A DNA stretch of 62,342 nucleotides, counting the filler, from Globobulimina sp. (Eukaryota), in the NCBI GenBank assembly GCA_003354225.1. It is 35 parts of 35 records of this genome, joined end to end, with 100 filler letters (N's around TTAATTAATTAA, not from the genome) between each part and the next. Parts side by side here need not be neighbours in the genome. Positions count along the whole stretch, not along the records: positions 1,787 to 3,471 come from PIVH01013137.1; 34 more parts are not named here. One strand, written 5' to 3'. The position numbers were made by a program, and so were the translations under genes. Position 1 is the first letter of the stretch, and each line of letters opens with the position of its first letter. A model generated the notes under the pieces. The model searched no databases. It had not been told where the DNA came from and was given only the letters and a program-made list of their open reading frames with translations. Positions 153-50,470 of this stretch are shown piece after piece.

Positions 153-435
153 CTATTATGCCTTTGCTGTGCTTGTGCTTGCTGTTGTTTATATCGCTGA
201 TAATCCTGCTGTTGTTTATATTGTTCGACAGATATTGTAGTAAATATTGTTGTGCTGTTGTTGTTGTTTATTATTTGCAATATTTGCTATTTCATTGTAG
301 AAATTAGGTGATGCATTTTGTGAGTTTTTAATAAAATAAAAACAATGTGTGACTTTTCAAACTGAATGCAAAAAATAAGTTAGTTCGGAGATATTGATGC
401 GATTGATTTTAATTTAATATTTGTAACAGCATCGA

Positions 436-765
436 CCGCCAATGGATTTGATTATGAAAATGCGCGGATTTGATATTTAATCATTTGACGATGGCGATAG
501 CTGTATAATCACGCGGCGATATGGCCGGTATATGTCAGTCAGGCAAGAGAGAGATGGCCGCAGTCGTATTTTACCAATGGATGGGAACAGGGAACAGGGA
601 ACTTTTCTGACTATTAAGCAATGTGTGCAGTTATATTATATGGTGCCGATGCAACCAGATTTGCCTTAGCCAACGCAGGAGATACGTTGGAAGACGCAAA
701 CTTTGAAACGGATGTGGCGAATGCAGCCATTTTGGGGTTGACCCGATTTGAGAACGTCGTGTTTG
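436..765 (+). pseudogene. Degraded eukaryote/archaea-type leucyl-tRNA synthetase fragment
   Basis: Pieces in shifting frames read DLIFNHLTMAI, ERWPQSYFTNG, GNF/LTIKQCVQL and YGADATRFALANAGDTLEDANFETDVANAAIL, collinear with the LeuRS region around KMSKS. KMSKS itself is absent and frameshifts are present. Confidence 0.75.
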
Positions 766-775
766 TTTTTGACCA

Positions 776-1686
776 TTATCGGTCAGGGAAGTTAATTCGA
801 TGTGCTGCGTTTCGGATATCATATATTGTAATCTGACAAATGCAGATCCGGATTATTATGTGGCTCACGTCAATGGTATACCATACGCGGCAAGAATTGC
901 CTTTACATAATGTATTGAGCCGGTTCTTCAAAATATCACTTAACCAGCTTTTATTATAATCTCTCTCTGCTTTAATAATATATTTTATGGATGATTTGTA
1001 TGATTCAATCGATGATGAAAATGATAATAAACTAAATCTATATTCTATCTCTCCAAACATACCACCTGTTGTATGAATAACAATTTTATTAATATTTGGA
1101 AATATGGGAAATATTTTGGGATTTATTACATTTAAATATGAATTATTCTCTGTATAAATAAGTAAATCACTTAATTCCTTAAAACGTGTTAATATTTGAT
1201 GAATACGAATCCTTAATTCTGTTTTTTTATTTACAAATAAATGAAATGAATCAATAATATATGGATCAATATCTTGTTTCTCTTTTTCTTGATTTAATTT
1301 ATTATTTATTAAGGCATTTAATATTAAAATATCTGATGCCAAAATATTTAGATTATTATCACCGAATTGGCTTGTAAATACACCAGATATGATATGATCC
1401 AATAAATAAAATGCATGGAAAAACTCTTTATAATTTTTAGCTGACTCAATTATTATTATTGACTCAATTTTTAATCTCATTCTTGTAAACATAAATAATC
1501 TCTCATTTTCATCTGAAAAATTTGAAATCCAGCTACAATCAAAATAATTTTGAAATGCGGCTTGTTGTTCATCATTTATTAATTGCATAATGATACCATC
1601 GCGTTTAGCAAATTTAATTGCAATTTCAATATCTTTTGTTGTGGAACAGGGTCCACTTAAAAATATGGCAAATGCGGAAAGAGTTA
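776..1686 (-). CDS. Protein with mono-ADP-ribosyltransferase-like (R-S-E type) motifs; 5' truncated by the contig end
   Basis: The frame is open to the contig end and reads GPCSTTKDIEIAIKFA (STS-like motif) then SWISNFSDENERLF (E-x-E-like motif). Confidence 0.5.
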
Positions 1687-1786
1687 NNNNNNNNNNNNNN
1701 NNNNNNNNNNNNNNNNNNNNNNNNNNNNNNTTAATTAATTAANNNNNNNNNNNNNNNNNNNNNNNNNNNNNNNNNNNNNNNNNNNN
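1687..1786. other. Artificial contig linker (N44-TTAATTAATTAA-N44); first of 34 such linkers spaced about 1,785 bp apart
   Basis: The same palindromic 12-mer (stop codons in all six frames) flanked by N runs recurs throughout. The intervening contigs shrink from 1686 to 1683 bp. Confidence 0.98.
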
Positions 1787-1898
1787 GTTTTTTAGGGGTA
1801 AAAAATACGTATCACAGATAGCGAATCTTGTCAATATTTATAATTATTTCAAATGGTTGTATTTTTACTGGTTAGGAAAACTCAACTCCGAAAGTTGA

Positions 1899-2252
1899 GT
1901 TAATGGTTATAAATGTGGCTTTTTGATTTGCTATGACAATTGCTTCCCTGAATTGTACACAGCCTATAAAGAAATGGGGGTAGGTTTACTTTTTCACTCT
2001 TTTCATAATGCTGAAAATAAGCATGAGACCTGTATAAAAGATCTCATGGCTGCAAATCTACTTGTACGTTCTGCCGATAATCAAATTTGGATTTCTGCCA
2101 GTAATTCATCAAAATCATATTCACCGCTTCCGGCTACAATCGCTAGGCCTGATGGCAGTGCAAATAAGGGCAAACGACATGCTACATGTATCGTTATTGA
2201 GGATTACCCTAAAGCCAAACTTGGCTGGACTTATGATAATACCAAAATCTAA
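1899..2252 (+). CDS. Carbon-nitrogen hydrolase (nitrilase superfamily), C-terminal half only; integron cassette 1
   Basis: GFLICYDNCFPE catalytic-Cys motif, RSADNQIWI and IARPDG. An in-frame TGA at 1896 removes the N-terminal half. The stop codon lies inside the R'' site of attC1. Confidence 0.8.
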   Translation, partial: VNGYKCGFLICYDNCFPELYTAYKEMGVGLLFHSFHNAENKHETCIKDLMAANLLVRSADNQIWISASNSSKSYSPLPATIARPDGSANKGKRHATCIVIEDYPKAKLGWTYDNTKI

Positions 2253-2318
2253 CATTTGTTTCCAGCGGGTGTTTTTCGTCGCAAGCGCCCAAAAACACCG
2301 TTGAAACTGGCGTTATAA
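2247..2318 (+). mobile_element. attC site 1 (integron cassette recombination site), 72 bp
   Basis: R'' ATCTAAC, 5-bp spacer, L'' TTTCCAGC, stem CGGGTGTTTTT/AAAAACACCG, L' GTTGAAA, 5-bp spacer, R' GTTATAA. An unpaired extra base is present in L''. Confidence 0.92.
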
Positions 2319-2340
2319 GTCTGTACAATAGGATCAAAAC

Positions 2341-2760
2341 ATGAAAAAACGACCATCATTCGAAGACATTTATATAGAATTTGCGGAGTTAATTTCAAAA
2401 AGATCAACTTGCAAGCGTTTAAATGTAGGAACTGTTATAACCACAACCGATTATCGAAAAGTATTAGCTGTTGGTTACAATGGGAATGCTTCTGGTTTAG
2501 AAAATAGTTGTGATCGTGAAGAGCCAGGTAATTGTGGGTGTCTCCATTCAGAAGATAATGCTACAATCAACTGCGATGCGCCTCGAGAAATTAAAAAATA
2601 TGTTTTCGTTACACATTTACCCTGCCCAATGTGTGCCAAAAGATTAATCAATCTTGGTTATGTCCAGAAAGTAATTTACAAAAACAGTTTTCGTAACACT
2701 GAATCATTAGAAATTTTTAGTAAAGTTGGGATTCCTATCTTACAATATAAGGTTACTTAA
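2341..2760 (+). CDS. dCMP deaminase family (Zn-dependent cytidine/deoxycytidylate deaminase); integron cassette 2
   Basis: RSTCKRLNVG, GYNG, H-x-E (HSE) and PCxxC (PCPMC) motifs. AGGA ribosome-binding site at 2330-2333. Confidence 0.92.
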   Translation: MKKRPSFEDIYIEFAELISKRSTCKRLNVGTVITTTDYRKVLAVGYNGNASGLENSCDREEPGNCGCLHSEDNATINCDAPREIKKYVFVTHLPCPMCAKRLINLGYVQKVIYKNSFRNTESLEIFSKVGIPILQYKVT

Positions 2761-2767
2761 CTTCGAC

Positions 2768-2860
2768 TTATAACCATTCATTGCTGCTGACCCTGACCAC
2801 AAGAGGCGAGCCTCTTATTCCCTCCTTGCGGTCGGCGGCCCCTGAACTCAACCGTTATGC
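2768..2860 (+). mobile_element. attC site 2, 93 bp
   Basis: R'' TTATAAC and R' GTTATGC with inner stem CTGACCACAAG/CTTGCGGTCGG. ACTTATAAC (2766-2774) is the exact reverse complement of GTTATAAGT (2312-2320) at the cassette start. Confidence 0.88.
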
Positions 2861-2884
2861 CTTACTCGGTAATGACAAAATCAC

Positions 2885-2913
2885 TTGGCATGTACATATA
2901 TTATACATATAAA
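2885..2913 (+). promoter_or_regulatory. Sigma70-type promoter of the TA cassette, with an overlapping imperfect palindrome (candidate operator)
   Basis: -35 TTGGCA (2885-2890), 17-bp spacer, -10 TATAAA (2908-2913). ATGTA...TACAT dyad at 2890-2908. Confidence 0.7.
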
Positions 2914-2919
2914 TAAACT

Positions 2920-3192
2920 ATGAAGATGACATGGGATCCAAATCAAGCGAATTTGAATTTCAACAAACACAATATTCGCTTTTCGGATGCAGAGTCTGTA
3001 TTTTATGATCCTTATGCCATTACTATAGAGGATATTTCATCTGAAGGAGAGCAGCGCCATATTACTATCGGAATGGATTCAATTGCACGAGTTTTAGTTA
3101 TTGTTTTTACATATCATGAAGATGAAATCAGATTAATATCTGCACGTCGTGTAACAAAAAAGGAAATACGCCAATATGAAACAGGAATATGA
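2920..3192 (+). CDS. brnT: BrnT family toxin (type II TA ribonuclease); integron cassette 3
   Basis: WDxxxAxxNxxKHxIxFxDAxxVFxDP N-terminus and IRLISARRVTKKE C-terminus; 90 aa. Confidence 0.92.
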   Translation: MKMTWDPNQANLNFNKHNIRFSDAESVFYDPYAITIEDISSEGEQRHITIGMDSIARVLVIVFTYHEDEIRLISARRVTKKEIRQYETGI

Positions 3193-3424
3193 CTTCAGTA
3201 AAGGTAAAAGGAGCGCTGTTTTACCACAAAAGGGTAAAACAAGGATTACAATTTATCTCGATAATGACGTTATCGAAGAATTCCGAAATCGTGCCGACAA
3301 ATCTGGAACCGGCTATCAAACATTGATCAACAAAGTATTAAAAGCTCATCTCAATAAATCCAATAATCCTATTGATGAAAATACTTTACGACGTGTCATT
3401 AGAGAAGAACTAAAAGCTGTTTAG
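3176..3424 (+). CDS. brnA: BrnA family antitoxin
   Basis: MKQEYDFSKGKR, ITIYLDNDVIEEFR and GYQTLINKVL motifs; overlaps the toxin by 17 bp. Confidence 0.9.
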   Translation: MKQEYDFSKGKRSAVLPQKGKTRITIYLDNDVIEEFRNRADKSGTGYQTLINKVLKAHLNKSNNPIDENTLRRVIREELKAV

Positions 3425-3438
3425 TACAATATCAGCAG

Positions 3439-3471
3439 GCATAACCCATTGCAGCGGACCACAAGGGGCGC
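3439..3471 (+). mobile_element. attC site 3 (left arm only; cut by the contig end)
   Basis: AGGCATAAC (3437-3445) is the exact reverse complement of GTTATGCCT (2854-2862). The following ATTGCAGCGGACCACAAG resembles the left arm of attC2. Confidence 0.8.
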
Positions 3472-3903
3472 NNNNNNNNNNNNNNNNNNNNNNNNNNNNN
3501 NNNNNNNNNNNNNNNTTAATTAATTAANNNNNNNNNNNNNNNNNNNNNNNNNNNNNNNNNNNNNNNNNNNNCGACAAAAAGCACCGCGATGATAGTAATT
3601 AAATCAAGCAAACATTGTAAATTGATATGCTTCGAAACATAACTTTGTTCCTTTTGATTGCATTCCAAATAACTGTTTTTAGATGTTTTTTGAAAGTTAT
3701 TTGTCGCTGACAATGAGTATCAAGACGGATAATTAGAAACAGATTTTTTCGTTGATATATATTGTGACTGCATGTTTCGATGTTGATCATGACACAGGAA
3801 AAATATTAAAAAAGTATGACAAAGTCATCTATTTCTTTGGCGATTTTAAAATAAACAAAATGTGTAAATACATACGTTTTCATTGTGACTGAAGACGGCT
3901 GAA

Positions 3904-4704
3904 TTAACTCGTTTGTGATACTTTTATTGGAAATTGTATAATTATCTGTCGCAGAGCCAAATGAATAATCTGATTTGTTATACCAATATACCGAATAAAT
4001 GCATCGTTGGCATAAATGATTGTTGTTAATATCTGAGAAGGAGCGTATGCCCCAATATATGCATTTGGACTGGTGGAGGTTTGTAAGGCAGCAACGAATA
4101 TATAGTCGTCAGTCTCTGCCGGGCACAATGACCGCAAATCTATCATCGATGTGCCATGGGAATAGGGTTGAAAATAACATTTTTGCCAACCAGATGCCTC
4201 TAAATTTGATAATGGATAATTGCTTACCACTCCACAACCATAGCATGGAGTTGATATTAATACACGCATAGAACATCCGGATGCTTTATACTGATCAGGT
4301 TCTTGATATTGTACATAACAACCGGCCGCGGGACACGTACAACTGCTACACCTTGGTGTTCTAGACCAGGTAACATTTCTTATGCCGCTCGAGTCCGGAT
4401 AATTATATAGCATACGATTTGTATCCCAATTATAAGCTTCTGATACATATATTGTATTTGTTGCCGATGCAGCTACAGTCCAATCACTAGGCAATGTATA
4501 GAAGGAATAATATTCACATCCATCAGTTGTACCATAGGGATCGGCGCCACTAATGGTCGCATAACACATTCCATCATAATGTACTGCGGGAAAACCAAAA
4601 CTGTTGCAATAACTGTCACATCCATAGGTTTTGCTGCTAAACAATGACAACGCGATTATTGTCAATATTGTTGATAATGAGAATGATGAGATCGTAGCTG
4701 CCAC
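3904..4704 (-). CDS. Secreted Cys/Tyr-rich eukaryotic protein of unknown function
   Basis: Hydrophobic signal-peptide-like N-terminus and many Cys. The ORF track starts it at GTG, so the true start is uncertain. Confidence 0.55.
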   Translation of the reverse strand: MAATISSFSLSTILTIIALSLFSSKTYGCDSYCNSFGFPAVHYDGMCYATISGADPYGTTDGCEYYSFYTLPSDWTVAASATNTIYVSEAYNWDTNRMLYNYPDSSGIRNVTWSRTPRCSSCTCPAAGCYVQYQEPDQYKASGCSMRVLISTPCYGCGVVSNYPLSNLEASGWQKCYFQPYSHGTSMIDLRSLCPAETDDYIFVAALQTSTSPNAYIGAYAPSQILTTIIYANDAFIRYIGITNQIIHLALRQIIIQFPIKVSQTS

Positions 4705-4820
4705 GCTTTCACTTTAATTTATTATATATAAAAACGGAAGTTTTTGATTAATATTTTTTACATAAAATAAAACAATATGTCTTTATTTCAAAATGCAATT
4801 ACTGTCATAATTCAAATACT

Positions 4821-4951
4821 TTCCCCGTGGTTTATTTTAGAGGGATTACTTTTTAGCACATTTTAGATCCTATGTATTGTTATCACCATCTCCCTGTATT
4901 GTGTGCGAGGATAAATCTAAAAAAAATCCCTCTAAATAAAACCACGGGGAA
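4821..4951. repeat. MITE-like foldback with 27-bp terminal inverted repeats
   Basis: TTCCCCGTGGTTTATTTTAGAGGGATT (4821-4847) matches the reverse complement of 4925-4951 at 25/27 positions. Confidence 0.75.
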
Positions 4952-5487
4952 CGTAATCGTTCACATATTGTTCGAGAGGAGAGAATGTTGATCAATTTAC
5001 AAACCATGATGATTGCGTTGTGTTTTGTGAGATAATGTTCTTGGCCATTATTGGTGCGGTCATGATAGCAACTACTGTTTTTCGCAGATAAAAAACTGAA
5101 CTTTTGCAAATCAGCAATGACAATAAATCAAAAACAAAATAATATTCATTCAAGATGACACATTCTACAAAAAAAACAATTCATGGATCAATTTCATGTC
5201 ATTGTTTTCATTTAAATTTCTTGTTTTGGATTTACTGTTTCTTTTTTTTCTTCTTCNNNNNNNNNNNNNNNNNNNNNNNNNNNNNNNNNNNNNNNNNNNN
5301 TTAATTAATTAANNNNNNNNNNNNNNNNNNNNNNNNNNNNNNNNNNNNNNNNNNNNTTAAAAATGAGAAGAAAATGCATTCTTGCTAAAGAACACGACAG
5401 AGTTAATTTTTCTAGACATTTAGTAAATGTGTCCACTTATTAAACGACTCTTTAATTATTGCACACCACACAACGGATACATGTCAC

Positions 5488-6411
5488 TCATTGTTGATTA
5501 ACATAAGCTAAATATGCATTAAACTCAAGTTTAGTTTGTCGTTTATTAACTGCTTGTTTTTGAAATTTGCCATCTTTAACATACAATATTCTGTCCGCAT
5601 ATACTTCCAAATCTCCATTATGTGTCACCATGATGCACGTCGTCTTTTTATTTTGGTTGATTGATAATATAATATCCATAATTTCGATTGTATTTCTTGT
5701 GTCTAAATCGCCAGTGGGCTCATCTAACAACAATATTTCCGGCTCATTTGCCAATGCTCGAGCTATGGTCACGCGTTGTTGCTCACCACCGGACAATTCT
5801 GATGGTAGATGTTCTAAGCGGTCGCCTAAGCCCACCAACTCTAATAAGGATATTGCCCGATTCTTACATGCCTTTTTGCTCAATGTTCCATGTATAATCA
5901 TCGGCAATTCTACATTCTCAAATGCTGACATTGTTGAGATTAAGTTGAATGTTTGAAATACGAAGCCAATCTTCCTTAGACGCAGGTTTGCTAAGTATCT
6001 ATCCGATGAATCTTTGTTAACTAAAGATGATAATATCTCAATTGTGCCTGTTGTGGGATAATCCAATGTGCCGAGCATATTTAGCAAAGTTGTTTTGCCT
6101 CCACCCGATGGTCCGCGTATCATTAAAAATTCGCCACGTTTGATGGCTCCAAATTCGGTGTCTCGCGCCAATGTGACACCGGATAATGCATTGATCACTT
6201 CATCACGACCGACAATGGTAAATTGCTTCCGGACATCTCGTACTTCAATTATGGCTTCGCCTAACTGTTTGCTTATATACTCACTCACATTATTATTAAG
6301 GTTGTTATTATTCGATCTCTCTTCGACAATATTGGAGGGAATATCTTCAGTTTTTTCATCATTTAAAAGTTCCGTACCATTGTGGCTGTTTGTTGATGCA
6401 TAGGTGCCCAT
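5488..6411 (-). CDS. ABC transporter ATP-binding protein, LolD/MacB/FtsE type, with a low-complexity N-terminal extension
   Basis: Walker A GPSGGGKT, Q-loop GFVFQTFNL, signature LSGGEQQRV, Walker B LLLDEPTGDLD and H-loop VTH. Confidence 0.93.
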   Translation of the reverse strand: MGTYASTNSHNGTELLNDEKTEDIPSNIVEERSNNNNLNNNVSEYISKQLGEAIIEVRDVRKQFTIVGRDEVINALSGVTLARDTEFGAIKRGEFLMIRGPSGGGKTTLLNMLGTLDYPTTGTIEILSSLVNKDSSDRYLANLRLRKIGFVFQTFNLISTMSAFENVELPMIIHGTLSKKACKNRAISLLELVGLGDRLEHLPSELSGGEQQRVTIARALANEPEILLLDEPTGDLDTRNTIEIMDIILSINQNKKTTCIMVTHNGDLEVYADRILYVKDGKFQKQAVNKRQTKLEFNAYLAYVNQQ

Positions 6412-6666
6412 GGTTTGTGGAGTAATAGTTTTTAAATCTCTGTGTTACTAAGAGCTGGATGAATATGCGGCACCAAATTGAACAGTACTGGTTTGACGCC
6501 TGATCAAAATGTCTGGTTTTTCACTTATGAGATTTGCACATTTCATAAATAAAAATGTTTAAATGTATAGCATAGTAATCGATTTATCATAGTAATAAAT
6601 TATGTGTGTTTTTACTTTTTTGAGTTTTTTCTCGAACAAGAAACAAGTCTGACAATTATAAGCTTT

Positions 6667-7021
6667 TTACTCTACATTATTTTCTTTACAATTACCAATT
6701 ATTATTCGTGTTTCATAATATCCAGGATAAATATCAATTATTTCTTGATCTTTATCAAAATAATTTGAGTTAAATAATAATGGTTTCTTAATACAGTACG
6801 ATTGATCGGCACCATGATCATATAAACATTGATTATACTGATTATATCCCCATAAATAATATTTATTATCCTCTGTTTTAATAATATTATGCTGTGCACC
6901 ACATTTAATATCAATAATTGTTTCCTTTTTTAATGTTTCATTTGGTTGCGGCAAATATACAGTTTCCTCTGAACCATTACCACATTGATACTCCGCATTC
7001 ATTCCAAAACAATATATCTTA
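6667..7021 (-). CDS. RCC1-repeat protein, C-terminal fragment
   Basis: FGMNAEYQCG, IIDIKCGAQHNII and YLWGYNQYNQC match the RCC1 repeat pattern. Confidence 0.75.
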
Positions 7022-7295
7022 TTTATTTATTTATTAAAATANNNNNNNNNNNNNNNNNNNNNNNNNNNNNNNNNNNNNNNNNNNNTTAATTAATTAANNN
7101 NNNNNNNNNNNNNNNNNNNNNNNNNNNNNNNNNNNNNNNNNAGTTTTGTATTAAAATACAGTTATGGCCGTGGAAGACCTTTAGTTTACACTGTGCGTTA
7201 TTGAAATATTCAATTTGTTTTAAAAGATTGTCAACGATGTCCATGATAAAAACTTATAAAATTAGCTAGTACGTTTTTTTTTAGTATTCTTGAAA

Positions 7296-8677: not shown

Positions 8678-9939
8678 CAGCTCTACAGTTTATCCTTGCT
8701 GTTATTCGTTATCATTGGCATTCCACAGTTACTCGTAAGACATGCACAGCGCTGTCGATCCATCAATAAAACACATATACAGTGGTGTATCGGATAAGAT
8801 GCAGACGCTATGACCACTTTTTCAATNNNNNNNNNNNNNNNNNNNNNNNNNNNNNNNNNNNNNNNNNNNNTTAATTAATTAANNNNNNNNNNNNNNNNNN
8901 NNNNNNNNNNNNNNNNNNNNNNNNNNTAATGTCGGGCATTTAATGTAACCATAAAAACAGTGTTGCGGAAAAGTTTTTAGACTGCCGCAAATCTGTTTCA
9001 CAACTACAAAAGCTCCACACTTCTGTTCCGCAAAAAAGGTGCCCTAATCAGGTTGTTTTCTCCCACCAAGTGTGATAAATCTGCATATGCACTGGGAGAT
9101 GATTGGCAGTCTTGTCGGGGATGTGGATGGTGGATCCAATACAAACCCACCATCCCTGTGGATTGTGGCGCACCTCAATACATCCTCGGCAAAATGCTGG
9201 CACTTTAGGTCAAAGCGAGGGGGTAAAATCTTGAACCTCAGCGAATACAAACCACCTTGATAGGATCCGACCCCTTGTACTTACAACTTGCATATTCCTA
9301 CTTGCTTTTACTTCGGATTTGAATGCGTTGAGTCTAATCCAAGGGCATGTAATTGAATTTATCTTATTTCATATGTAAAACCATTCATTCTGGCCATTAT
9401 TAATTGTTTTATGCTACATTCTGATTGATTTTAATACATATCGGTGATTTATTCATTCATTCAAAGCAAAATTTTGCTTTATTAATCCACCCTCTTCTTG
9501 TCCATCCAGCTTTGATACATCTCATTTATCAAATTTTAGGTACTTTATCACTTTTTACTTGTTTGAGATTGCCAATTAATGACTAATTGCCCATTTCCAT
9601 CGCCTTTTGCAGGAATTCCAGTGGAAAATTGATATATTTTTATATTAATAGATGGGGAATCCACTGCAAATCCTGTCCCTCCGTTAAATTAGTTTTGTTT
9701 TTGATTACGCAAAATGCGTAATCAAGGTAGATACTCTACCAGTGTGCTACCCTCATTTCCATATACATTACATCCAGCGGAAATATAATCATTTTGAGCA
9801 ATGTTTTATAGTCAGTAACATCAAAATCCATTCCTAATATTCGAAATATTTTATTATCCTCCTTTATTTTACCATCTACTTTGAATTGATGCTGCCGAAA
9901 TGATTTCCATGTACCATTATCCTTTTACTCCACTTTATA

Positions 9940-10611
9940 GCATCTTTCACGTAATCTAGCAATAATGCCCGCCGCTGAGCATCTAGTTCAGCCACAACTT
10001 CATCAAGTAATAAGATGGGAACCTCGCCGGTTTGCCGTGTCATCCAATTAATTTCAGCCATTTTCAAAGCCAGAATGGCCGTGCGCTGCTGGCCACGAGA
10101 CCCATAACTGCTCAGAGAACGGCCGTTTAGCAAAAACTGCCAATCATCTCGGTGTGGCCCCACACTCGTCGCACCACGCGCCAAATCTGCACTCAACGAC
10201 TGTTCAAGCAACTCAGCAAACCGTTCAGCCACAGCCGATTCATCCTGAAAATGAGATTGCCACCATGCAATCCATTCTTTAACGTCCGCATCATCCCCAT
10301 TGTTCCCCGATTTATTGCGCCACAAACCAGGCAAATAATTAAAGCGTACCGTTTCAGTACCTTCCGTCAGCGCCCCATAATGAATCTGATGCACCTCTCG
10401 CGCCAACTCATCCACAAACTTTGCCCGCCGAGTCAGAACCTGGCTGCCCAACTGAACCAACTTATCCGTATAAATCGGGATCATCTCGCGGGAACTCAAT
10501 CCCTCAGCCACTTGGCGTAAAAGAGCATTCCGCTGCTCCAACACCTTATTGTAATTAGAGAGTGTACGGCAGTAAAGACCATCAATCTGGCATAATGTAA
10601 TATCCAAATAA
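9940..10611 (-). CDS. recF: Bacterial DNA replication/repair protein RecF, internal to C-terminal fragment
   Basis: YNKVLEQRNALL, TSVGPHRDD, YGSRGQQRTAILALKMAE and PILLLDEVVAELDAQRR. Similarity stops after LLDYVKDA. Confidence 0.93.
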
Positions 10612-48178: not shown

Positions 48179-49852
48179 GATATTAGCTACGGTTGACACC
48201 GCCTTGAATGGCAGCAATGCGATATTGGATTTTACCGAGAAAGAGAAGCAAATATGTTATACGCCGGAAGGGGCGTTATGTACTTTTGAAGATGATCATA
48301 AATCGCGTTCTGAGGCTGACAAAGCGCGAAAAGGCAAACGGAAACGCAAGAAAAGGCCAACCAATCTCGGTCTGAAAGGAAAGAACACCAAAGGTACGGC
48401 AGTGACGGATAAATTATTGGTGCAAAAGGTGCGGGAAAAGGGCACAAAGCGATTGATAACAGACGAAGAATGGGAGGAAGAGCAGCGGAGAGAAATTGCC
48501 CTCAAATCGGGTGCGGCGGAGAAGGAACGACAAGTTTTAATTGAACAGCAGTCGACGGTGCGGCGGAAATTAGAAACGATTCGTTTCCGCTTATTTTCTG
48601 TATTTCGCTTATTTAAAAGACTGATAATGATAAATAGGAAGGACTTCGCAGAGTATTTGAGTTTGAAATATTTGAAGTTTATAGTCCCGTTTAGTGTGTC
48701 TGAGTTGTTGCGGCAGAATATCGCGGATGGCATGAATGTGATATTAAATAGTTTTAGTGCGCCCATTCGAAAACAGTCCAATACCTTCGCTGCGTTGCTG
48801 ATTAAGCATTACGTGCATAAACAGAAATTGTTTGAGGACAACGAGGTGCGGTCTATGATTGTTAGGACGATGGAGCAGTTGAAGAAAGACTCGGAGGTGC
48901 CAGATATTCGCGTGATGTTTAGCAAAATAAAGAGGCGGCGGAGGTTTGACAGGAATAAGGAGGGTGGAAAGGGAGAGGGAGCGCCTGTACATAGAGGGAG
49001 AGGAAGGGGACGAGGTAGAGGTCGTGGCAGAGGTCGAGGTGTGTCCGCATTGAGAGGACGAGGAAGAGGCAGAGGTCGAGGAAGGGGAAGAGGTCGAGGA
49101 AGAGGTGTGGTGACTGCACCTGCGCCCTCTCGTATGCCTGAAGAGAAAAAGGTTTGTGTTGGTCTGATATATGCACTTTATTTAGATGCTGAAATACGAA
49201 GTTTCTAAATGTATTTTATTTGCATAAAGGCAAAGTGCTAGATTTTGTTTGGATATATCTTTAAATTCAATATGATATATTAATGACTTTTTGTATATGT
49301 TTTTAGGGCGAAGATGATGAGGAAGATGCGGATCTATTTACAGCTTCATATGATACAACCAATAGATGGAGCATTGCTTCATTTGTCGCGTTATTTCCCT
49401 TTATGGAGAGTTGTTTGATGGATGTTGTGGATCCAAGAAGGAAAAACAACAAACTTAAATATAAAATATCCAAATTATTTCCAAATTGGATATTATCGCT
49501 CATCATTCACCAATGCCATGCTGCGTTAAATGTCAATATAAATGGACTAAAATTCCCCTGTTATCGCGTCTCGTATGTCTTATTAAAATGCATTGAATAT
49601 TTCCCCGCCTGCGCTAAAGCAATAAGTTACGGGTTATGTCAATTAAGTCCTTCGATGCGCGAACGGCCAGAAAATACCGCTTCAAACACCGATGACCTGA
49701 AAGAGGAACTAAATAACAGTGAGCTGCGAGCCATATTACATCGCGACGGCTGTTTAGCGAAAGTGGCGCGATGTCGTAAAGCCGCCTTACTGGCATTGTC
49801 ATTAAACGAATGTGTATTATATCCTCAATCCAATTTAGTAAAATCGTATTGA
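48179..49852 (+). CDS. GCN1: GCN1 (eIF2-alpha kinase activator, HEAT repeats), internal fragment; intron 49152-49306
   Basis: ICYTPEGAL, EEWEEEQRREIALK..QQSTVRRKL, SFVALFPFM and ELRAIL..GCLAKVARCRKAALLAL are collinear with the GCN1 mid-region (recalled). The splice is in frame. Confidence 0.7.
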
Positions 49853-50470
49853 GAAAAATTANNNNNNNNNNNNNNNNNNNNNNNNNNNNNNNNNNNNNNN
49901 NNNNNTTAATTAATTAANNNNNNNNNNNNNNNNNNNNNNNNNNNNNNNNNNNNNNNNNNNNCTATACAATATTATCAATATTTTCGACAGAGTTTTGGTT
50001 TGAGGTTACAGTCTGCATAAAAAATCTCCGAAAAAAACGTCAATATCAATATCTCACCGCAAAACTGGAACTCTTCCGATACTTAGCCTTGCGTTTATCC
50101 ACCACGCCGTAAAAACGTATGACAACATCGCATTGAAAAGGTAATACACTTTCCAAGTCGCCATTTTCTGCGCTGATTTTGGAAATAAATCGCGTCGCAG
50201 CCACCAAATATTGCGATATCAATTTGATACTATCATTTATTTTCACTTCCGGTGCGAATTGAAAATTTGGCGCAATTCTGTGGGATTATTATAATTATCA
50301 TGAATATGCTGCATTTACTTCAAACTAAGTCAACATTCTTAATTTCCCGCAATTGTTTCTATGGACTGTTTCCTACCAAATAACATTCAGTTTATTCTAG
50401 TATCGGATTTAAATTTGATCCAATCCAAATATTTAAGGCATATTTGAATTGCATTCGAATGAACTGAATG

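Follow-up and report, generated by a model that had tools for sequence, protein, structure and literature searches.

The stretch of DNA described here (hereafter the window) comprises 62,342 bases of the Globobulimina sp. assembly GCA_003354225.1 and consists of 35 unrelated contigs of 1683-1686 nt each, joined by spacers of the form N/TTAATTAATTAA/N across which features should not be read. One contig of this window, at positions 1787-3471, is very probably a piece of the gene-cassette array of a bacterial integron, or of a cluster of attC recombination sites that has no integrase. The fragment corresponds to exactly one whole contig (1685 nt, 36.8% GC), and its neighbours in the window are AT-rich, with 28-42% GC. 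PMC8618304 records integrons in Desulfobacterota, describes chromosomal integrons with conserved attC sites and lists toxin-antitoxin cassettes as common.

Three co-oriented gene units lie on the contig, each with an attC-type site after it, as an earlier reading made from the sequence alone (hereafter the sequence-only reading) had described; a Pfam scan of the contig placed all four genes on the plus strand, and the ends of the core sites were read directly from the sequence. The same reading had proposed a cassette array. This proposal is now supported by the match of attC2, the second site, to a covariance model (R1) of attC sites from other genomes, by the identity of the core of attC3, the third site, with cores of the same family, and by homologues of the first gene, an amidohydrolase, which stand between attC-like sites in metagenome contigs. 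The contig would represent three co-oriented, promoterless-looking cassettes, each ending in an attC site. Its features, in window coordinates, are listed below.

1787-1899, minus strand: probable terminal 113 nt of an IS4-family insertion sequence (IS), the end proximal to the transposase start; the transposase reads on the minus strand
1886-1899: 14-nt terminal inverted repeat CTCCGAAAGTTGAG, at the IS end in the window
1900-1906, no strand: TTAATGG, putative 7-bp target-site duplication, inferred from two records with one IS end each
1900-2252, plus strand: 3' part (about codons 138-254) of a cassette gene for a carbon-nitrogen hydrolase of the amidohydrolase/nitrilase superfamily (PF00795), with its TAA stop at 2250-2252
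2247-2318, plus strand: attC1 (candidate), 72 nt, with R'' ATCTAAC at 2247-2253, R' GTTATAA at 2312-2318 and the crossover at G2312/T2313
2313-2854, plus strand: cassette 2, 542 bp, made up of its start TTATAAGTC, a dCMP/cytidine deaminase-like gene and attC2; the start is complementary to the cassette's own R'' over 10 nt
2341-2760, plus strand: dCMP/cytidine deaminase-like gene, 139 aa (PF00383), with HSE and PCPMC zinc motifs
2766-2862, plus strand: attC2, R1 family, 97 nt, with R'' within ACTTATAAC at 2766-2774, R' GTTATGC at 2854-2860 and the crossover at G2854/T2855
2855-3471, plus strand: cassette 3, incomplete, made up of brnT, brnA and the start of attC3; its own start TTATGCCT is complementary to AGGCATAA at 3437-3444
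2920-3192, plus strand: brnT, predicted type II toxin (RNase), 90 aa (PF04365, profile positions 1-77 of 77)
3176-3424, plus strand: brnA, predicted antitoxin, 82 aa (PF14384), with a 17-nt overlap with brnT
3437-3471, plus strand: attC3, 5' part only, with R'' within AGGCATAAC at 3437-3445, followed by a 24-nt R1 core and cut by the contig end

Core sites and cassette closure

The integron recombinase IntI binds the folded bottom strand of attC sites, the core consensus of which is RYYYAAC for the R'' box at the 5' end and GTTRRRY for the R' box at the 3' end. In the mechanism proposed for the present contig, the integrase would fold the attC bottom strand and cut the R' core at G|TT. As such a cut leaves the opening bases of each cassette as part of its own attC, they would pair with the R'' of that cassette. 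Cassettes would be excised as circles and inserted at attI.

The 9-bp complements that the sequence-only reading had reported for cassettes 2 and 3 proved to be exact. For cassette 2, GTTATAAGT at 2312-2320 is the complement of ACTTATAAC at 2766-2774, and the pairing extends to 10 nt; for cassette 3, GTTATGCCT at 2854-2862 pairs in the same way with AGGCATAAC at 3437-3445. Taken alone these 9-mers are not significant, because such pairs are common in shuffles of an AT-rich contig: dinucleotide shuffling gave a mean of 6.9 exact 9-mer inverted pairs 200-1000 nt apart per shuffle, and at least one pair starting with GTT in 10.7% of 2000 shuffles. What is significant is the position of the complements, with the G|TT that closes one palindrome at one side and the AAC that opens the next at the other.

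Closure was also counted at each of 15 consecutive junctions from related arrays and the window contig, over the six variable bases next to GTT/AAC. Complementarity was found at 68 of the 90 positions, and eight of the 15 junctions, including both window junctions, paired at all six bases. Mismatched control pairings, 210 in all, averaged 2.67 of 6, with five or more bases paired in 10/210. Three rows of this count were out of register; one of them reaches 6/6 when placed in register, and the other two are sites with degenerate cores on the metagenome contig L071, described below.

AAC and GTT triplets are present at every visible attC end, and the full heptamer consensus occurs only in the R'' of attC1 (ATCTAAC). 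The remaining cores, TTATAAC, GCATAAC, GTTATAA and GTTATGC, differ from RYYYAAC/GTTRRRY at one or two positions; ends of the form ATAAC/GTTAT are the rule within the R1 attC family.

The bottom strand of attC1 folds into a 5-bp core-site stem, a 3x3 unpaired spacer, a 5-bp L stem and a long stem with bulges of 2-3 nt, at -12.8 kcal/mol (z -2.59; 2/200 shuffles were as good). An R stem, an unpaired spacer, an L stem and a bulged stem form the textbook attC layout. Its R'' overlaps the TAA stop of the amidohydrolase gene, and an RYYYAAC core is also made up of the gene's final codons and stop in L057, L058 and L063. The first 20 nt of attC1 also resemble the site that follows the homologous amidohydrolase gene on L063, a metagenome contig, and the closure of cassette 2 independently sets the 3' boundary of attC1. 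From the RYYYAAC end, the hairpin, the position and the L063 look-alike of the 5' half, attC1 appears to be a short attC with a classical hairpin, of a different type from attC2 and attC3; it stands as a candidate that the covariance model did not confirm.

The R1 attC family

An Rfam scan of the contig, made with a library that holds no attC family, returned four chance matches. Relatives were sought in species-representative genomes with a degenerate pattern common to attC2 and attC3, for which an exact 19-base motif was required. The pattern was present at 30 loci, and in nine of these the whole site, including its 3' half, was recognised by eye: in the Desulfobacula metagenome-assembled genomes (MAGs) L002, L009, L011, L017, L019 and L021, in the Desulfobulbaceae MAG L016, and in the poorly classified MAGs L013 and L030.

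The covariance model R1 was built from 15 aligned attC sites from these loci of other genomes and contains no sequence from the window. Run against the whole 62-kb window, it matched attC2 at 2767-2862 with 65.7 bits (E 3.8e-16), the only other matches up to E 10 reaching 11.8 and 9.0 bits. The sequence-only reading had proposed a covariance-model check at 2768-2860 and 2247-2318: the first stretch was matched, while the second was not, R1 being specific to its family and attC1 being of another type. By sequence comparison, attC2 is 81% identical to the L009/L056 site, and the 24-nt core of attC3 is identical to those of L002 and L030 (24/24) and of L011 (23/23; BLASTN and pattern hits). With filters off, R1 reported neither attC3 nor attC1; attC3 goes unreported because it is cut by the contig end.

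Across the nine chosen loci and ten others, R1 gave 22 matches at E<=0.01. On the remaining 21 pattern loci only L023 scored, and never at the pattern site, and those 21 pattern matches were chance. On L023, the chromosome of a Thermoanaerobaculia MAG, three weaker R1 matches lie on one strand at 223-7124 (35.5, 22.8 and 21.9 bits), possibly a related attC array in another phylum.

The consensus fold of R1 contains a conserved, one-sided bulge of 11 nt. Its sites occur in two forms, one short (about 90-105 nt) and one long (about 146 nt), the latter in L002, L009/L056, L017, L019 and L030 (e.g., L017:2134-2280). The centre of the long form, about 60 nt, is conserved between MAGs, unlike the usual variable attC centre, and holds a small internal hairpin with two compensatory pairs. 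It is conceivable, although rather unlikely, that the R1 family represents a distinct attC architecture, conserved in sequence, with the 11-nt bulge, the 60-nt centre and a hairpin energy at random level, and with closure kept. The spread claimed for this putative variant takes in several Desulfobacula species-level MAGs, two unclassified MAGs and one metagenome array. If the suggestion were true, the fold recognised by the integrases would differ from the textbook R/L-box hairpin, a host factor perhaps being bound to the conserved bulge, and the identical IS insertion found in two independent data sets (see below) would mark one widespread sediment lineage.

Related arrays and integron integrases

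The five genomes to which L002, L009, L011, L013 and L030 belong hold 35 R1 sites at E<=0.001. On L056, six R1 sites on the same strand within 3 kb separate VapB/VapC, TPR, Amphi-Trp, TfoX_C and an open reading frame (ORF) that belongs to no family. The metagenome contig L071 (1-3340) carries five R1 sites of 63.6-88.3 bits, and its cargo comprises HD_3 (a YfbR-like 5'-deoxynucleotidase), YefM/YoeB, Phd/ParE, an unknown ORF and, at its end, the 5' part of an amidohydrolase gene. Two of the L071 sites have degenerate cores, with AAT for AAC and GAA for GTT.

Matches that exceeded the curated cut-off of the integron integrase model TIGR02249 numbered seven (345-452 bits); they came from two of the five R1-family genomes, on contigs other than those of the R1 arrays, and from 0/14 control genomes; a third R1-family genome, G001, has a partial intI of 137 bits at a contig end. 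A loose regular expression for attC ends, applied to the loci flanking integrases, returned mostly noise. On L054:4878-10232 (G003:C158), 38 residues encoded on the minus strand match the N-terminal end of the integrase model (E 1.4e-4), and two R1 matches of 45.6 and 26.5 bits stand on the plus strand at a distance of about 2.3 kb; an integron whose integrase has decayed would have this layout.

The broken amidohydrolase gene

What the sequence-only reading had called a nitrilase fragment is indeed the 3' part of a CN_hydrolase gene: the Pfam match at 1899-2249 covers the C-terminal part only (profile positions 142-207 of 256, E 4.8e-5) and the piece retains the ICYD cysteine motif. It is not a bare truncation, since the end of a probable IS4-family element fills 1787-1899, and the gene appears to have been split by an IS4-family element near codon 138. 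The piece is 89% identical over 117 aa to the 254-aa protein P0001, and as a 117-aa piece matches 254-aa proteins, about 137 residues of the amidohydrolase are absent.

BLASTN alignments to the six closest homologous loci begin at contig positions 113-116, i.e., at 1899-1902 of the window, and DNA identity to the amidohydrolase loci is 60-97% (mostly 70-90%) downstream of this break and 23-67% upstream of it. Given the latter figure, a gapped BLASTP alignment that extended the amidohydrolase upstream of 1899 was judged spurious. The 5' part of the gene on L071, with an N-terminus 77% identical to P0001, loses its homology at the same codon as the window break. Past this break L071 reads CTCAACTTTCTGAG, which is an inverted match (13/14) to CTCCGAAAGTTGAG at 1886-1899 of the window; TTAATGG stands on the gene side of the break in both L071 and the window, and the reading frame agrees. 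Inverted repeats together with a 7-bp duplication are characteristic of transposable elements. Complementarity between GTTATATGTC, with which the L071 cassette begins, and the R'' of the window is only partial, and therefore L071 and the window hold related cassettes that are not proven halves of one molecule.

Relatives of the 113-nt IS end were found in 8/301 genomes of the order of G003, which is Desulfobacterales because G003 is a Desulfobacula MAG. The copy on L087 has perfect 14-nt inverted ends (14/14) around an ORF of 225 aa, which scores 216.8 bits against the IS4-family transposase model NF049925 (cut-off 250) and holds a Y-2-R-3-E-6-K-type stretch; as this ORF covers only positions 250-437 of 449, the L087 copy is 5'-deleted. 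Solo or much shortened IS ends that enclose no transposase ORF occur at L088:1501-1600, L090 and L083:1501-1598, and may resemble miniature inverted-repeat transposable elements. Cassette 1 would accordingly be pictured as a carbon-nitrogen hydrolase gene of the 254-aa type, later interrupted at about codon 138 by an IS4-family insertion with a 7-bp duplication; only the last 113 nt of the IS and the 3' part of the gene would be present because the assembly broke inside a multi-copy IS.

Two other accounts of the gene break were dropped. Integrase-mediated truncation at an internal GTT gave way to the IS, which accounts for the inverted repeat and the duplication. Recoding of TGA, suggested by the in-frame TGA at 1896-1898, is out, as this TGA lies within the IS end and brnT stops at a TGA with full profile length.

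Read depth bears on a third account, in which the left 113 nt are foreign, having come from the eukaryote or some other abundant organism and been attached by mis-assembly, so that the amidohydrolase gene was cut by a chimeric join. Among the runs searched as Logan contigs, X1 is the only one that holds contig 1787-3471. There, 1787-1899 is found at the end of a contig of 1061 nt with a depth of 58.6, and the contigs that carry the cassette part have depths of 4.3-9.6 (5.3 on 1875-2412); past 1900, a further contig continues with different letters. These depths, the second continuation and an AT-richness like that of the other window contigs would suit a chimera. A multi-copy IS, however, gives high depth and several continuations, and a low-depth Logan contig begins at 1875 and crosses the junction, spanning 1875-1905. 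Moreover, the 14-nt end is the inverted match of the L071 sequence that follows the same gene break, related ends occur in the Desulfobacterales-order genomes mentioned above, one related copy encloses an IS4 transposase remnant, and 1787-1899 has no significant match in the other window contigs. We consider a chimeric join improbable, and retain the IS4-family insertion as the explanation of the break.

Further sites in the run and the likely host

Other contigs of X1 show that the R1 sites of the window have company. The summed depth rises to as much as 30 at attC3, as expected of a repeat, and three contigs link the 5' core of attC3 to the 3' half of attC2 via three different centres; therefore at least three further cassettes with R1-family sites are present in the sample. 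Several different sequences, at depths of 4-8, follow 2856-2858 and precede 3447. Positions 2414-2527 and 2870-2926 are uncovered, being holes in low-depth contigs that carry no meaning. The further sites are consistent with a longer array, and to this extent lend indirect support to the long array suggested by the sequence-only reading.

The host is most likely a Desulfobacterales-like (Desulfobacula-like) sediment bacterium and a low-depth, minor component of the run, as the R1 family occurs in the arrays of Desulfobacula and a few other MAGs. The earlier attribution to an uncharacterised bacterium therefore holds as regards bacterial origin, but the organism is probably Desulfobacterales-like rather than wholly uncharacterised.

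Transfer of a cassette array into the genome of the eukaryote itself is most improbable. The contig was co-assembled with the eukaryote's contigs and its GC content of 36.8% is near theirs, but it has no eukaryote-like flank, all four genes have the overlapping or compact organisation of bacteria, and a depth of about 5 indicates a minor component of the run. Elsewhere in the window, the contigs at 8927-10611 (41.5% GC) and 48179-49861 (42.2%) have a higher GC content than the rest and might also be foreign.

Weighing the cassette-array reading

Several points weigh against the reading of the contig as part of a cassette array, and they are gathered here. Neither intI, attI nor Pc is on the 1685-nt contig, the absence of intI having been pointed out already in the sequence-only reading; as the contig is only 1.7 kb long, this absence says nothing. 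None of the R1 arrays inspected stands beside a full-length intI, with none found within 6 kb upstream of L056, and on L040 the only site 4 kb from a full intI scores 27.3 bits and shares the outer boxes. Since MAGs break at repeats, missing intI neighbours are weak evidence either way.

The sites themselves supply further points of this kind. At some L071 junctions with degenerate cores the closure rule is broken, and the window's R' cores GTTATAA and GTTATGC depart from the consensus. Under R1 the best scores of attC1 are 3.3-6.1 bits, which places it outside the family, and as a DNA query attC1 matched nothing significantly in the five attC-family genomes (best E 0.07) or in the plasmid collection. 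The folds of attC2 and three R1 relatives are no better than those of shuffled sequences (z -0.40, 0.06, -1.91 and 0.72); covariation in R1 is slight, with a compensatory change in one of 15 pairs, and energy alone does not support the hairpin.

The remaining points concern the setting of the contig. Because X1 may be the source sample, the evidence from this run is not independent. The host assignment depends on a pattern search with an exact motif and on IS ends, both of them able to pass from host to host, and no close relative of the deaminase was found in the 301 genomes of G003's order (4/301 at E<=1e-20, the best at 41% identity). The putative duplication that flanks the IS was reconstructed from two separate records.

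In the terminology of IntegronFinder, attC clusters that have no integron integrase are called CALIN. It is possible, although less likely than not, that the contig comes from such a cluster or from a decayed array, the cassettes of which are no longer mobilised and are simply inherited. The inspected R1 arrays that have no adjoining intI, the degenerate cores of some L071 sites, the IS tolerated in cassette 1 and the three of five family-holding genomes that lack a TIGR02249 match above the cut-off all fit such a state. These genomes are nevertheless fragmented MAGs broken at repeats, one of which has the partial intI at a contig end, and the exact closure of cassettes 2 and 3 over 9-10 nt suggests that there has been little decay since insertion.

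Random-level folding of the R1 sites, and the use of an analysis that included no curated attC model, would also be compatible with another type of intergenic repeat, such as a repetitive extragenic palindromic (REP)-like element or a terminator, instead of recombination sites. We regard this as highly improbable, because closure complementarity varies by junction while the repeat stays constant, AAC and GTT cores stand at the ends, one copy follows each gene unit in a single orientation, the cargo is typical of cassettes (toxin-antitoxin pairs and small unknown ORFs), and integron integrases are present in family-holding genomes. A cassette-array fragment, whether or not an integrase is still associated with it, thus remains our reading of the contig.

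Cargo genes

Cassette 2 would carry a small dCMP/cytidine deaminase as cargo. The domain assignment is clear (PF00383, 52.5 bits with a cut-off of 25, E 5e-14). Against equivalog models the protein scored far below the cut-offs, with 64.4 bits for TIGR02571 (ComEB, cut-off 219) and 34.7 bits for the anti-phage dCTP deaminase model NF041025 (cut-off 400), and it gave a weak PADLOC dCTPase match. Its role may lie in either nucleotide salvage or anti-phage nucleotide depletion. Relatives are numerous (2811, the best 86% identical) and mostly found on short metagenome contigs. A copy that is 67% identical lies among tightly packed genes in the phage contig L096, and no attC-like flank was seen around it on inspection by eye.

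Cassette 3 holds a BrnT/BrnA pair, with BrnT covering its whole profile (PF04365, 94.2 bits with a cut-off of 34.5, E 5.9e-27) and BrnA scoring 41.9 bits (PF14384, cut-off 26.1, E 1.3e-10). The two genes are adjacent and overlap by 17 nt at 3176-3192, and a search of viral contigs with BrnT gave a single match of 27% identity. Such a pair, of the kind thought to stabilise large arrays, would penalise the loss of this part of the array.

Cassettes distal to Pc are silent unless they bear a promoter, which is often the case for toxin-antitoxin cassettes. A promoter scan of the contig found four sigma-70-like sites where 6.4 were expected, so cassette promoters are unsupported. One sigma-70-like site at 2301-2329 (TTGAAA, 17 nt, TACAAT; 10/12) runs from the 3' end of attC1 into the start of cassette 2, 12 nt 5' of the deaminase start.

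Significance

The contig is flagged here as bacterial and as a minor component of the run. Integron arrays with toxin-antitoxin cassettes are well known, including in Desulfobacterota (PMC8618304), and the finding therefore has little broad biological weight. It does yield an attC family defined by its sequence, and with it a covariance model able to recognise the cassette arrays of Desulfobacula-like sediment bacteria. The presence of a probable IS4-family element at the same site of a cassette gene in two data sets is a small example of array decay. The deaminase and the L071 cassette with the HD-domain nucleotidase are speculative candidates for phage-defence cargo.

Comparison with known systems

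The IS end resembles the IS4 family (NF049925) in its 14-nt terminal inverted repeats, its putative short target duplication and the transposase remnant of a related copy. It is unlike full IS4 elements in that only 113 nt are in the window, and no full-length copy was seen, the copy on L087 being below the cut-off (216.8 vs 250). The gene pair of cassette 3 is like other BrnT/BrnA systems in that the toxin gene comes first and is overlapped by the antitoxin gene, the gene order of the Brucella prototype. Unlike typical BrnT/BrnA systems, the pair is packaged here as an integron cassette, with an activity predicted from sequence.

As a whole, the contig is like a CALIN in presenting a run of attC sites with cassettes on a record that carries no intI, and the same is true of L056 and L071. 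It differs from the Vibrio superintegron and its Vibrio cholerae repeats (VCR) in that the R1 attC sequence is probably unrelated, occurs in short and long forms and, in the long form, has a conserved 60-nt centre. With the sedentary chromosomal integrons that the Vibrio superintegron exemplifies, it nonetheless shares co-oriented small cassettes, attC ends, attC sequences that are conserved within the array family, toxin-antitoxin cassettes and closure, and, attC1 being the one that differs, its attC2 and attC3 are alike.

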